This document shows positions 16,907 through 24,378 of a stretch of 64,000 nucleotides of DNA, piece by piece. Position 1 is the stretch's first letter; each line of letters starts with the position of its first letter. The stretch lies in NCBI GenBank assembly GCA_036008385.1, contig DASYNX010000082.1, positions 15,867 through 79,866 on the forward strand. Direction: 5' to 3'. The notes below the pieces were generated by a model. It had not been told where the DNA came from and made no database searches. It saw only the letters and a list, made by a program, of their open reading frames with translations. A program made the position numbers and the translations under genes. Origin of the DNA: Steroidobacteraceae bacterium. Lineage in GTDB: Bacteria > Pseudomonadota > Gammaproteobacteria > Steroidobacterales > Steroidobacteraceae.

Positions 16907-17096
16907 GCCGGGATCCTCCTGTGCTGCACGAAACAGCGTGCGAGCACATTCGGATGACGCGGTGGCGCGATCAGGGCAGATTGTGGCAGCGCTGCTGCTG
17001 CGCGAGAGCCTCCGGTTCGACGTTGCCGAGAACCACCTTCATCCCTTCGCTGGCAAACCGCTCTGGACGGGCGACGCTCCGTGTTGGTAGTTGGAA

Positions 17097-17412
17097 TGGG
17101 CCCGGTAGGATTCGAACCTACGACCAAGGGATTCACTCTGCCCCGGCGTTTCCGCCGGGAGTGGACTATCTCTTCACCCGCGCACGTGGTCGCGTGCGTG
17201 TGGGTGCGGGATGCTCCAGCCTGTCATCAAGGGCACTCGAGCCCTCAGGTAGTCTCTGCACCTTCCGCCGGTGTACCGGCGGCTCGGCTCAGGGTTGCCA
17301 TGGGCAGGATTCCCGAAGGTTTCCCTGAATTCATCCCGTCCACTTCGCGCGTTTCCGCGTGAAGGCACCTTTGTCGATGAGTCCCCTGCACTAACCGCTG
17401 TGCTACAGGCCC
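17097..17412 (-). tRNA. tRNA-Ile(CAU) (lysidine-type tRNA-Ile2) interrupted by a group I intron
   Basis: Exon 1 (17412-17377) is GGGCCTG TA GCAC AGCGGTTA GTGC A GGGGA CTCAT. Exon 2 (17133-17097) is AA TCCCT TGGTC GTAGG TTCGAAT CCTAC CGGGCCC A. Joined, they give a 73-nt cloverleaf with a 7-bp acceptor, CAU anticodon, G1:C72, C4:G69, C5:G68, a G27-U43 wobble and a UGGUC variable loop, as in E. coli ileX. CCA is not encoded. Confidence 0.85.
17134..17376 (-). ncRNA. group I self-splicing intron (IC3-like, no ORF) in the tRNA anticodon loop
   Basis: 243 nt inserted right after anticodon CAT. An internal guide GTG 8 nt into the intron can pair with exon CAU (G-U at the splice site). The intron ends in G (17134). 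It contains GTGCCTT..., GAAA tetraloops, ATGGCAAC, GAGCC and GAAGGTGCAGAGACTA, which parallel my recollection of the Azoarcus tRNA-Ile intron (GUGCCUUGCG...AUGGCAACGCCGAGCC...GAAGGUGUAGAGACUA). Confidence 0.8.
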
Positions 17413-17885
17413 AACGACGCGATTGTAGCAGTCGGTCGTGCGCTCAGTTGCCCGGCGCAGCGGGCTCTTGCGGCTGGGTCTGGAATATCGGGCCGCCCTG
17501 GTGCGTGAAGTAGACCTTGCCCTGGCTGCGCGCGATGTAGATGCACGACGTATCCGCCCAAGGCGAAGTCACGGACGGTGAAGATGTCGGCTTCGTCGGC
17601 GCCGTTCACTCCGATGAATCTCGCACCAGAACCCACAGCATGCAGACCGAGAGACTCGAGGGCCGGGCGCCACAGCGTGCTCTTGGCGGCACCGGTATCC
17701 ACCAGCATTTGTGCGGCATGTCCGTCGATGGAGACGGCTGCCAGCGGCTCGTTGTGGGTCGTTGTGACGCTCAGCTCGCCGATCTTCAGGAGCTGGCACG
17801 CGCCCTTGGCCGCCATGACGGGCTCGCCTGCGAGCGTGAGAGCGGATATAGCCGCAGCTCCGATCCATGCCCTGAGACCCCTCAC
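17403..17885 (-). CDS. retropepsin-like (clan AA) aspartic protease, secreted; the 3' third is probably frameshifted
   Basis: 160-aa ORF with a signal peptide and the active-site motif LVDTGAAKST. After ~GGYVV the called frame becomes R/P/A-rich junk and runs 10 nt into the tRNA. The +1 frame reads CIYIARSQGKVYFTHQGGPIFQTQPQEPAAPGN and stops at 17444. Confidence 0.55.
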   Translation of the reverse strand: MRGLRAWIGAAAISALTLAGEPVMAAKGACQLLKIGELSVTTTHNEPLAAVSIDGHAAQMLVDTGAAKSTLWRPALESLGLHAVGSGARFIGVNGADEADIFTVRDFALGGYVVHLHRAQPGQGLLHAPGRPDIPDPAARARCAGQLSARPTATIASLGL

Positions 17886-19558: not shown

Positions 19559-20278
19559 GTGGCGAATAGCCCTGAAAGATCTCCGGTCTTCTATGCGCGG
19601 GTCGCAGGGTGCATCTACCTGGTTGCGATGGCCTTAGGGATCTTCAGTCAATCATTCGTTCTGGGGCGCATGGTGGAAGACGATGCGGCGGCAACGGCGC
19701 ACAACATCGTAGCTGCCGAGGGCCTCTTTCGGCTTGGCATCGCCATCGATGTGATCACGTTTGTAAGCGACGTCGTAATCGCCTGGGCGCTGTACGAATT
19801 GCTCAAGTTCGTGGACAAGAGTCTCGCCTTGCTTGGCGCATTCCTGCGAATTGCCGATGGAGCCATCCTCGCCGTCGTTACACTGAACGGGCTCATCACC
19901 CTGCGGCTGTTGAGCGGTGTTGGCTACCTTCACGGATTCGATACGAATCAGTTGCAGGGACTTGCGAGATTGTTTGTCAGCGCGCGTGGCCTCGGTTTCT
20001 ATATCGGCTTCGTATTTCTGGGGCTCGGGTCGGCGGTATTCGCCTACCTGCTGCTGAAATCGCGCTACGTACCCGCGATACTGCCGGCGTGGGGCATCTT
20101 AGCGTCGCTGCTGTTGGCGATCGGGTCGCTTGCCGTGATTTTCTCGCCCTGGTTCGCGGGCAACGCTGCGATGGCCTACATGGTCCCGATGTTCTTCTAC
20201 GAAGTGCCGCTCGGCCTGTGGTTCCTGATCAGGGGTGTCAGGTCCCCCACGAGGCAGGCAGCACTCACAGCCGACTGA
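19559..20278 (+). CDS. DUF4386-family membrane protein
   Basis: Frame of ORF 19502..20278. ARVAGCIYLVAMALGIFSQSF...IVAAEGLFRLGIAIDVITFVSDVVIAWALYELLK is typical of DUF4386. Start uncertain: GTG at 19559 with GAGG upstream, versus TTG at 19502. Confidence 0.7.
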   Translation: MANSPERSPVFYARVAGCIYLVAMALGIFSQSFVLGRMVEDDAAATAHNIVAAEGLFRLGIAIDVITFVSDVVIAWALYELLKFVDKSLALLGAFLRIADGAILAVVTLNGLITLRLLSGVGYLHGFDTNQLQGLARLFVSARGLGFYIGFVFLGLGSAVFAYLLLKSRYVPAILPAWGILASLLLAIGSLAVIFSPWFAGNAAMAYMVPMFFYEVPLGLWFLIRGVRSPTRQAALTAD

Positions 20279-20311
20279 CGGAAGTACCGCAGCGCTGGCG
20301 CGCCGCGCGCG

Positions 20312-22456
<2,145 letters not shown>

Positions 22457-22575
22457 GTGTCGGGGTGTGCTGCGGGCCTGAAGTGCTCTATCTGCTGCCG
22501 GGAGCCGAGCAGCTCAAGGGGCGAAAGGCAAAGCTCGCAAGTTTATTTGACTCCGGTTAAATCACCAAATCGATA

Positions 22576-24378
22576 TTAGCCGCCGCGCAGCTCACGGTGG
22601 CTGAGTCTCTCTATAAGCCTCTGAAATTCCTCAATTTCCGCGGCCGCCAGGCTGCCTGCCCGACTTTTGGCCTCGAGGGCCTCCAGACGCCGTCCGGCCG
22701 CCTGGTCGGCCAGCTTGACGAGCGCGGCCCGCAGCTCGCCCACCGCTGCGGACGCTTCCGTAATGACCTCCTCGCGCTCGAGGAGTTTCTGCAGCGCAGC
22801 GCCGCCCTCGCGGCCCGAGAAGCGCTCGATGACCTGGGCGGCAATCTGCGCGGGCTGCTCGCGCAGATTGTCGAGCAGCTCGCGCAACAGCGCGACACCG
22901 GCCTCGTCGCTGGCATCGAGGCCGGCGCGCTCTGGCGCCGTCACCTCGAGCGCGATCGGCGGGTAGTGCAGCAGCCGCACGATCGCCTGGCGCACGAGGC
23001 TGCCGCGTCCGGCGCCGCGTGCCGGACGTGCGGGCCGCCGGACTGGCGCCGGAGCGGCGGTTGGTGCGTCGGCGCGGCCGTGTGTCCACAGCTCCGCCAG
23101 ACGCGCAGGGCTCAGGCCCACGACCCCGGCGAGCCGCTCGAGCAGCAGCTCGCGATAGACCCCCTCGGGGACCTTCGCGAACAGCGGCCGGGCGCTCTCG
23201 GCAAAGCGCGCGCGACCGTCGGCGTGCTTGAGCTCGCTCTGCTCCGAGAGCTCGCGCACCAGGTACTCCGACAGCGGCACGGCGCCGGCGAGGCGCTGCT
23301 CGAACCCGGCGCGTCCCTCGGCCGCCACCAACGTGTCCGGATCGTGACCCTCGGGCAGGAACAGGAAGCGGATCTCGCGTCCCTCGCGCGCTTCGGGCAG
23401 CGCCTGCTGCAACGCGCGCCACGCGGCCGCCCGCCCGGCGCGATCGCCGTCGAAGGCGAACACCACCGCCGGCACCAGCCGGAAGATGCGCCGGAAGTGC
23501 TCGGCCGTGGTGGCGGTGCCGAGGGTCGCCACGGTGTAATCGACGCCCTCCTGATGCAGCCGCACAGTGTCCATGTAGCCTTCGACGACGACGAGGCGCG
23601 TCAGGTTGGACCGGGCGCGCCGCGTCTCGTACAGGCCGTAGAGCTCCCGGCCCTTGTGAAACAACACCGTCTCCGGCGAGTTGAGGTACTTCGGCTCCCC
23701 GGCTTCGATGACCCGCCCGCCGAAGGCGATTACCCGACCGCGGGTATCGCGGATGGGGAACATGAGGCGGTCGCGGAAGCGATCGTAGTAGCGCTCGCCG
23801 TCGCGCACCGTGCCGCGCTCGCGTTCGACGATGAGGCCGGCGTCGCTCATCAGCCGCCGCTCGGCGTCGCTGCCGCCAAAGCGGCGCAGCAGCTCGTTCC
23901 ACGAGTCCGGTGCATAACCGATCGCGAAGCGCTCCACGGTCGCCTCGCTCAGGCCGCGCCGCGCCAGGTACTCCCGGGCACGCGGCGTGCGCGCGAGCTG
24001 TTCGGCGTAGCAGCGGGCGACCCGCGCCATGAGCTCATACAGCGGCTCGTCGCTGCGGCGCGCGCCGGGCGCGACGCCGCCCTCGTGCGGCACCTCCAGG
24101 GCCAAGCGCGTGGCGAGCTCCTCCACGGCCTCGGGGAAGCTCATGTGATCGTGTTCCATGAGAAACCCGATGGCCGTACCGTGCTTGCCGCAGCCGAAGC
24201 AGTGATAGAACTGCTTGTCGGGGCTCACCCAGAATGAAGGAGTCTTCTCGTTGTGGAACGGGCAGCAGGCCTTGTACTCGCGGCCCGACTTCTTCAGCTG
24301 CACGCGCGCGCCGATGATCTCCACGATATCGGCGCGAGCAATGAGCTCATCGATGAAGCTCTGGGGGATGCGTCCCAA
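22576..24378 (-). CDS. dnaG: DNA primase DnaG
   Basis: 600 aa. Zinc finger is CPFHNEKTPSF...CFGCGKHG. TOPRIM domain is VVVEGYMD. Confidence 0.95.
   Translation of the reverse strand: MGRIPQSFIDELIARADIVEIIGARVQLKKSGREYKACCPFHNEKTPSFWVSPDKQFYHCFGCGKHGTAIGFLMEHDHMSFPEAVEELATRLALEVPHEGGVAPGARRSDEPLYELMARVARCYAEQLARTPRAREYLARRGLSEATVERFAIGYAPDSWNELLRRFGGSDAERRLMSDAGLIVERERGTVRDGERYYDRFRDRLMFPIRDTRGRVIAFGGRVIEAGEPKYLNSPETVLFHKGRELYGLYETRRARSNLTRLVVVEGYMDTVRLHQEGVDYTVATLGTATTAEHFRRIFRLVPAVVFAFDGDRAGRAAAWRALQQALPEAREGREIRFLFLPEGHDPDTLVAAEGRAGFEQRLAGAVPLSEYLVRELSEQSELKHADGRARFAESARPLFAKVPEGVYRELLLERLAGVVGLSPARLAELWTHGRADAPTAAPAPVRRPARPARGAGRGSLVRQAIVRLLHYPPIALEVTAPERAGLDASDEAGVALLRELLDNLREQPAQIAAQVIERFSGREGGAALQKLLEREEVITEASAAVGELRAALVKLADQAAGRRLEALEAKSRAGSLAAAEIEEFQRLIERLSHRELRGG

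Follow-up and report, generated by a model that had tools for sequence, protein, structure and literature searches.

A tRNA-Ile2 gene very probably split by an Ile2.5Ug-class group I intron that carries a P7.1-type hairpin, from a Steroidobacteraceae contig

Described relatives and the split gene

In a survey of 80,413 bacterial genomes, 5,292 tRNA genes split by group I introns were catalogued, and four classical types were distinguished among them, namely Leu.3Ug, Arg.5Ug, fMet.2Ug and Ile2.5Ug, all recorded as subgroup IC3 (Williams 2020; 10.1101/2020.01.27.920355). Here we describe a locus of the last type on the minus strand of a 64,000-nucleotide (nt) stretch of contig DASYNX010000082.1 from a Steroidobacteraceae bacterium; this whole stretch is referred to below as the window. 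We hold it very likely that the locus is the equivalent of the Escherichia coli ileX gene, a tRNA-Ile2 gene in which a 243-nt group I intron of the Ile2.5Ug class, without an open reading frame (ORF), separates nt 36 from nt 37. The gene is a member of a catalogued and widespread class, and the class, the site and the mechanism are already established. Like other members, it combines a tRNA-Ile2 host with anticodon CAU, insertion after the third anticodon base (position 5), a U at -1, a terminal G and the lack of an ORF, and no defining difference separates it from the class. In the seed alignment of the survey, Ile2.5Ug is represented by the short Azoarcus intron (Aol6) alone, and the P7.1-bearing form found in the window is not represented there for tRNA-Ile2.

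The Azoarcus intron is 205 nt long and is described as having no peripheral domains (PMC13168695). The window intron resembles it in its site, in the CAU/GUG pairing of P1, in the GAAA loops on P2 and P9, in the layout of P6a and P9.0, and in the core blocks AUGGCAAC, GAGCC and GAAGGUG(C/U)AGAGACUA. A first reading of the locus, made from the letters without database searches (the sequence-only reading), had likened the blocks ATGGCAAC, GAGCC and GAAGGTGCAGAGACTA to the Azoarcus ribozyme core, and they do match it in the Williams seed alignment. The window intron departs from the Azoarcus intron in being 38 nt longer, through a 37-nt P7.1-type segment where Azoarcus has a 1-nt joiner; in P8, which reads CACCC-ACA...C-GGGUG as against the CCUAAG/UAUGG motif; in P5, which reads CCUUCG...CCAUGG as against CCUAAG...UAUGG in Aol6; in J8/7-P7, which reads GAAGAGAUAGUCC as against GAAGGCAUAGUCC; and in its host, which is gammaproteobacterial (Steroidobacteraceae-like) where Azoarcus is betaproteobacterial. 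The CCUAAG/UAUGG motifs in P5 and P8 of the Azoarcus intron act as 11-nt-type tetraloop receptors. Of the traits of an Azoarcus-type minimal IC3 intron, the window intron therefore has the GNRA tetraloops on P2 and P9, and lacks both the joiner of about 1 nt with a length of 200-205 nt and the CCUAAG/UAUGG motifs.

Other described introns resemble it in different respects. The P7.1-bearing seeds (Lys.2Ug, Asn.4Ug, Phe.2Ug and Leu.1Ug) and the tmRNA introns have a structured helix between P7 and P3' in the same layout, and the helix of Mga42.Leu.1Ug, CCUG-AGCUUAU-GCGA-AUAGGCU-UAAUAA-CAGG, is the same motif as that of the window intron. These seeds also share a P3 of the xGGGUG AAUUC type, the P3' strand AGCGyCCxG and the J8/7-P7 segment AUGAGAUAGUCC, but they lie in other host tRNAs and at other positions of the anticodon loop, and the tmRNA introns differ further in having two hairpins (P7.1 and P7.2) and a T-loop location. 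The tRNA-Leu(UAA) IC3 introns of cyanobacteria and plastids (Leu.3Ug) are likewise small, ORF-less, of IC3 type and placed in the anticodon loop, with a P8 of the CCCUAAC/GAGGG type and the J8/7 sequence AAGrGAUAGUCC in Sel1.Leu.3Ug; they differ in the tRNA, in insertion after U34 and in having no P7.1 hairpin. Two reviews (PMC3984707, PMC11835236) contain nothing specific on tRNA-Ile introns of Gammaproteobacteria.

The evidence for a split gene at this locus begins with the tRNA. ARAGORN called zero tRNAs in the unspliced window, and it folded the 73 nt of the joined exons into a clean cloverleaf with anticodon CAT. The insert matches the Rfam family Intron_gpI (RF00028) at 17389..17142 on the minus strand with 70 bits against a gathering score of 50 (E = 1e-15); the match spans model positions 1-253 of 253, i.e. 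the full length of the model, and Intron_gpI is the sole Rfam family that matches anywhere in the window. The sequence-only reading had given the coordinates, the strand, the 243-nt insert and the 73-nt cloverleaf exactly as found here, and its description of an ORF-less group I intron right after CAU, sharing its site and its GUG guide with that of Azoarcus, is upheld by this full-length match above the gathering score, the covariance-model check that it had proposed. The insertion point lies between tRNA bases 36 and 37, with U at -1 and G at omega, and the intron sequence is identical between contigs of two Joint Genome Institute (JGI) metagenome samples. In at least 19 metagenome contigs, the 73-nt spliced product occurs as an uninterrupted gene, identical at 73/73 nt. 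These intron-less alleles validate the junction, with exon 1 ending in CAU, the intron in G and exon 2 beginning with AA, as near to independently as sequence data allow.

The isotype was called from similarity, identity elements and synteny. The top match of the spliced product in 5,426 E. coli genomes is an annotated tRNA-Ile(CAU), at 82% over the full length. It is identical to the E. coli ileY-type gene at 60/73 positions and to K-12 ileX, a tRNA-Ile(CAU), at 57/73, as against about 50/73 for the elongator and initiator tRNA-Met of E. coli. Its acceptor stem, GGGCCUG/CGGGCCC, has G1:C72, G3:C70, C4:G69 and C5:G68. An initiator tRNA has C1xA72, so that G1:C72 excludes this identity; C4:G69 and C5:G68 are the E. 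coli identity pairs of TilS, and G3:C70 is a TilS element in Burkholderia (PMC12514573). The arm sequences listed by the sequence-only reading, its pairs G1:C72, C4:G69, C5:G68 and G27-U43, the GUG guide and the two GAAA loops are all present. Position agrees with sequence: the window has the gene order tsaD, rpsU, yqeY, dnaG, rpoD, four small genes and the tRNA (Pfam domains on JGI gene calls), parallel to tsaD-rpsU-dnaG-rpoD-mug-ileX in E. coli K-12, and at 41 related loci an rpoD gene precedes the tRNA in the same orientation, at a median distance of 542 nt. Thus, the similarity, the identity pairs and the rpoD-linked position identify the ileX-equivalent tRNA-Ile2 gene, in line with the tRNA-Ile2 identity given by the sequence-only reading. 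The gene differs from E. coli ileX and ileY, which are uninterrupted and encode CCA, and also in its G3:C70 (as in Burkholderia) and its GCAC/GUGC D stem. The codon AUA makes up 13 of 13,038 codons in long ORFs rich in G+C at third codon positions (GC3), with one each in rpoD and dnaG; since it is present, though rare, including in these two genes, tRNA-Ile2 is needed.

The 3' CCA is not encoded in the window gene, where GGGCCCA is followed by TTCC (17096..17093, minus strand). Most of the clade with identical exons lacks it as well (L011, L021, L031, L036, L041, L049, L063, L079, L088, L093, L096 and L121; L numbers denote related loci), and most other intron-bearing loci encode it. The identical-exon clade thus relies on the CCA-adding enzyme for its tRNA-Ile2.

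Distribution of the intron and conservation of its fold

Related introns were collected by scanning genome collections for the pattern CTCAT-N60-90-GGYAAY-N15-45-AAGGTGYAGAGACT, which returned at least 120 loci. Of the 120 listed loci, 102 contain a clean split tRNA(CAU) gene of the GGGCC... type, whose intron measures 197-307 nt; the other 18 gave no clean split tRNA call, probably because they are truncated at the end of the locus or represent different tRNA types. The sequence-only reading had regarded such introns as described mainly from a few lineages; these numbers, and the place of Ile2.5Ug among the four classical types (Williams 2020), overturn that impression of rarity. Among the matches listed, split tRNA-Ile2 genes are hosted mostly by Gamma- and Betaproteobacteria, including the cultured Lysobacter, Luteimonas, Rhodanobacter, Dyella, Granulosicoccus and Pseudoduganella, many metagenome-assembled genomes (MAGs) of Steroidobacteraceae and Woeseiaceae, several betaproteobacterial genera and a few MAGs labelled as other phyla. 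Cultured strains with the intron include Dyella acidisoli 4MZ03, Dyella mobilis DHON07, Rhodanobacter fulvus Jip2, Lysobacter daejeonensis GH1-9 and Luteimonas aestuarii B9, and CP064031, OZ245781 and OY968773 are examples of complete carrier genomes. Exons identical to those of the window occur at 13 loci among the matches listed, and the nearest introns among them are those of L011 (92%) and L079 (91%). The nearest RpoD proteins, at 89-99%, come from Steroidobacteraceae MAGs; of the genomic context proposed by the sequence-only reading, the gammaproteobacterial part is retained and the Pseudomonas-like part is not.

The pattern was also seen in MAGs labelled Planctomycetota, Cyclobacteriaceae, Omnitrophota, Verrucomicrobiales, Opitutia, Fibrobacter, Nitrospira/Nitrospirales and candidate phyla radiation (L035, L040, L058, L060, L089, L026, L052, L073, L083, L062 and L078), of which only L035, L040, L058, L060 and L089 have a clean split tRNA. 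The tRNA of L060 is identical to the Woeseiaceae type, so that some of these labels may reflect mis-binning.

A metagenome scan with a 28-mer of the joined exons recovered uninterrupted tRNA-Ile2 genes of the type of the window clade on at least 120 contigs (L127-L246). In L231 and L202, the identical 73-nt gene, without an intron, follows an rpoD gene on the same strand whose product is 85% identical to the RpoD of the window; in L213, an intron-less tRNA lies on the strand opposite to a C-terminal RpoD fragment 96% identical to that of the window. These alleles indicate that the intron is polymorphic among fairly close relatives, as expected of an optional element subject to gain and loss.

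The fold from P1 to P9.0 (Table 1) was derived by hand and from the Rfam alignment, and was tested on a MAFFT alignment of 90 distinct homologous introns. In the window intron, 65/65 structural pairs are standard pairs. Across the 90 introns, 96.0% of cells are paired, as against 34-44% in controls with the 3' partners displaced by 1-3 columns; compensatory change on both sides is seen at 43 of the 65 pairs, and none of 500 column shuffles reached any of the observed pairing measures. P5, P6 and P7 are uninformative for covariation because they are invariant. Judging from the compensatory changes, this predicted fold is under selection across 90 species. The window intron has the consensus base of the family at each of the 130 columns that are conserved at 90% or more and therefore looks intact, and its length of 243 nt leaves no room for a homing endonuclease gene. 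GAAA tetraloops cap P2 (intron positions 22-25) and P9 (225-228). The hallmarks of a group I intron are thus found together in the covariance-model score, a P1 with a U:G wobble, a covarying P3-P9 core and a terminal G.

Table 1. Positions of the exons, intron elements and linked features in the window
Feature	Positions	Strand	Basis and remarks
dnaG-rpoD, upstream context of the ileX-equivalent locus	20312..24378	minus	Pfam domains, JGI gene calls
Candidate extended -10 box TGCTACAAT	17422..17430	minus	9 nt upstream of tRNA position 1; read from sequence
tRNA-Ile2 exon 1, GGGCCTGTAGCACAGCGGTTAGTGCAGGGGACTCAT, 36 nt	17412..17377	minus	tRNA positions 1-36, anticodon CAU at its end
Group I intron, 243 nt, without ORF	17376..17134	minus	starts CGACAAAGGTGCC, ends GGGGCAGAGTG (last letters CAGAGTG)
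Internal guide GUG (intron 9-11)	17366..17368	minus	pairs with exon CAU to form P1 with a U-1:G wobble; C:G, A:U and U:G invariant in 90/90
P2 hairpin with GAAA tetraloop (L2 17352..17355)	17343..17364	minus	8/8 pairs with compensatory change
P3 5' strand CGGGAUG	17332..17338	minus	partner 17207..17213; 98.9% of cells paired, 4/7 pairs covary
P4-P5-P6-P6a domain, contains AUGGCAAC and GAGCC	17260..17327	minus	covariance-model alignment; P4 100% paired, P6a 7/7 covary
P7 5' strand GAGACUA with bulged A	17250..17256	minus	invariant in 90/90; partner 17163..17168
P7.1-type peripheral hairpin and linker, CCUG-A-GGGC-UCGAGU-GCCC-UUGAUGA-CAGG-CUGGAG	17214..17249	minus	absent from the Azoarcus intron
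P3 3' strand CAUCCCG	17207..17213	minus	complementarity to P3 5' strand
P8 hairpin	17175..17206	minus	aligned to P8 of the Rfam model; outer 5 pairs 98% paired, 3 covary
P7 3' strand UAGUCC	17163..17168	minus	invariant
P9.0 (ACU/AGU) around P9 with GAAA tetraloop	17135..17162	minus	P9 7/7 and P9.0 3/3 pairs covary
Omega G (terminal guanosine, G243) at 3' splice site	17134	minus	sequence; directly after P9.0
tRNA-Ile2 exon 2, AATCCCTTGGTCGTAGGTTCGAATCCTACCGGGCCCA, 37 nt	17133..17097	minus	tRNA positions 37-73, CCA not encoded

P7.1 and P7.2 are placed between P7 and P3' and are typical of subgroup IA introns. They are among the peripheral elements that define group I subclasses (PMC3984707). 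The Rfam alignment places a 34-nt insert at this position in the window intron, between the 5' strand of P7 (AGACUA) and P3'. The sequence-only reading was right that the intron is longer than that of Azoarcus, but the GC-rich hairpin to which it assigned the extra length, CGCACCCACACGCACGCGACCACGTGCGCGGGTG (CGCACCC...GGGTG), is the ordinary P8, and the surplus lies between P7 and P3'. When P3' was located by complementarity to the 5' strand of P3, which succeeded in 99 of the 102 introns, two architectures emerged among the listed introns, a short-joiner type and a P7.1-bearing type. Introns of 197-205 nt, nearly all of them betaproteobacterial, have an Azoarcus-like 1-nt joiner between P7 and P3' (L014, L022, L023, L046, L048, L091, L094, L105, L111 and L118), and the P7.1-bearing form is found in the window and in about 90 other genomes among the 102 loci recovered. 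Its element has the consensus A-CCUG-A-GGGC-(loop)-GCCC-UUrAUnA-CAGG-CnnGAG and is mostly 37 nt long. In the 90 aligned introns, the outer helix is 99.4% and the inner helix 98.6% paired, changes on both sides occur at 8/8 pairs, and the asymmetric 3' internal loop UUrAUnA is kept in 86/90.

The Williams seed alignment (10.1101/2020.01.27.920355) annotates a helix between P7 and P3' in Lys.2Ug, Asn.4Ug, Phe.2Ug, Leu.1Ug and tmRNA introns. Since seeds from other hosts carry the same motif, the extra hairpin is a known kind of peripheral helix. It is conserved, and by analogy with P7.1/P7.2 in subgroup IA introns it would most likely brace the P3-P8/P7 core. A bolder proposal, which we regard as tentative and on balance doubtful, is that the P7.1-bearing tRNA-Ile2 introns form a distinct, undescribed subclass dominant in Gammaproteobacteria (about 90/102 listed loci), set apart by a novel tertiary contact or by having arisen independently. 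Under this subclass proposal, the window intron would be a typical member, and, as an equally speculative corollary, an A or G opposite UUrAUnA would form a specific tertiary contact in place of the 11-nt-type receptors of Azoarcus; the site between CAU and A may then have been reached independently of the Azoarcus lineage.

Growth in length within the intron family occurs mainly at the apical loop of P7.1, and the element, otherwise 37 nt long, reaches up to 83 nt in this way. The 307-nt intron at L100:6824-7136 is one such apical-loop expansion, and others are seen in L104, L007, L008, L061, L120, L033, L056, L017 and L103. In L054, L032, L103, L119 and L069, introns are lengthened 3' of P9 instead.

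Rival readings and the proposed course of splicing

Three other accounts of the locus compete with that of an intact, split tRNA-Ile2 gene. The intron could be a decayed, non-splicing relic and the locus a tRNA pseudogene, with AUA read by another tRNA-Ile2 copy; splicing is predicted here from sequence, and the intron-less alleles of relatives make a second copy in the genome possible. We nevertheless judge this very unlikely, given that none of the 130 conserved columns deviates, that 65/65 pairs are intact, that compensatory changes across 90 species speak for selection on the fold, that the exons are identical to functional-looking intron-less alleles, and that the promoter-like box is conserved. 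Comparably slight is the probability that the split gene encodes an elongator tRNA-Met(CAU). ARAGORN names any tRNA with a CAT anticodon Met, and the anticodon alone cannot separate Met from Ile2, but the best E. coli match is tRNA-Ile(CAU), at 60/73 as against about 50/73 to tRNA-Met, the TilS identity pairs C4:G69 and C5:G68 are present, the gene holds the rpoD-linked position of ileX, and the Williams pipeline classes such a configuration as Ile2.5Ug. Hardly credible, finally, is a displacement of both splice sites by 2 nt upstream, with exon 1 ending ...CTC, the intron ending ...GAG and exon 2 beginning TGAAT..., which would yield a tRNA-Gln(CUG) with the ligated exons CUCUGAAU. ARAGORN run with -i reports this junction, with anticodon CTG, and the boundary is formally ambiguous for a pure cloverleaf search. 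The tRNA-finder check proposed by the sequence-only reading therefore came out clean on the joined exons, with CAT, but 2 nt off in intron mode. We rejected the shifted junction because it has a C rather than a U at -1, against the CAU/GUG P1 with its U-1:G wobble, invariant in 90/90 homologues; because the covarying P9.0 (ACU/AGU) stops right before G243; and because the intron-less alleles, CTCATAATCCC, match the product with AA after CAU over 73 nt. The acceptor stem and the overall sequence likewise fit Ile2.

A further question concerns history rather than function. The P7.1-bearing and the Azoarcus-type Ile2 introns might be separate lineages that arrived independently at the site between CAU and A, e.g., by GUG-guided reverse splicing. 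The two types differ in P7.1, in the type of P8 receptor and in the J8/7-P7 sequence; introns of other tRNA hosts also contain the P7.1 motif; and the presence of the intron varies among close relatives. The 3' half of the window intron also points this way, being 44% identical to Azoarcus as against 56-60% to the P7.1-bearing seeds, with Lys.2Ug (P7.1-bearing) and Arg.5Ug nearest at 59-60%. The 5' half points the other way, since its nearest seeds are those of Azoarcus and Arg.5Ug, at 71%. Whole-length identities to the published seeds are alike for all, at 55-67%, and do not discriminate among them, and a single hairpin is easily gained or lost. On this evidence, we consider two separate lineages rather unlikely.

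The candidate -10 box of the window recurs as TGnTACAAT, 9-11 nt ahead of tRNA position 1, in most relatives that have the intron and in several alleles that do not. This conserved -10-like box suggests that the gene has a promoter of its own and a very short leader. Several points weigh against the account of a functional tRNA-Ile2 gene that splices from its own transcript. A generic sigma-70 scan called no promoter at the locus. The isotype call draws on similarity, identity elements and synteny. Splicing is predicted here from the DNA, and the analysis of the genome covered the window, so that a second, uninterrupted tRNA-Ile2 gene elsewhere in the genome is possible. The terminal G of the relatives was imposed by the procedure that extracted them and is hence not independent support, and the bracing role proposed for P7.1 is an analogy with IA introns.

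From established group I chemistry, we infer that the window intron is self-splicing. The split tRNA-Ile2 gene would be transcribed from its own candidate promoter, with the TGCTACAAT box 9 nt upstream, and the intron would fold from P1 to P9.0, the guide GUG and the exon CAU pairing so as to form the U-1:G wobble. An exogenous guanosine bound in P7 would attack the 5' splice site after U36, and P9.0 would then bring the terminal G243 into the same pocket. The freed 3'-OH of U36 would attack the 3' splice site, joining the exons into the 73-nt tRNA. After processing of the tRNA ends, the CCA-adding enzyme would supply CCA, and TilS would lysidinylate CAU to lysidine-AU for the reading of AUA.

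Wider use and other features of the window

The immediate consequence is for annotation. Standard tRNA finders miss the split tRNA-Ile2 gene, as ARAGORN did in the window, and Steroidobacteraceae, Xanthomonadales/Lysobacterales, Woeseiaceae and many Betaproteobacteria will seem to be without an essential AUA-decoding tRNA unless intron-aware tools are used. Should the split gene be the only tRNA-Ile2 copy, AUA decoding would hinge on an RNA-catalysed reaction. The biological value of the locus is modest, and current understanding is unchanged. It does belong to a family of about 90 naturally occurring, covarying versions of a small ribozyme close to the Azoarcus model, with an extra hairpin and different receptor motifs, a comparative set in which the stabilisation of a minimal group I core by peripheral elements could be studied.

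A generic terminator scan gave one spurious plus-strand terminator within the intron. On the minus strand, an ORF at 17403..17885, annotated by JGI as Asp_protease_2, overlaps the 5' end of the tRNA by 10 nt. Its last approximately 45 residues look out of frame; another frame from about 17545 reads YIARSQGKVYFTHQGGPIFQTQPQEPAAPGN and reaches a stop near 17445, which suggests a frameshift or an assembly error. Elsewhere in the window, the segment 36001..40000 has a G+C content of 0.615-0.63, as against about 0.69 in the rest, and could have been acquired horizontally. The rpoD region at 20001..22000 has an AT skew of -0.226, far stronger than elsewhere in the window; RpoD is encoded on the minus strand, and its acidic spacer, rich in Glu and Asp, is the probable cause.

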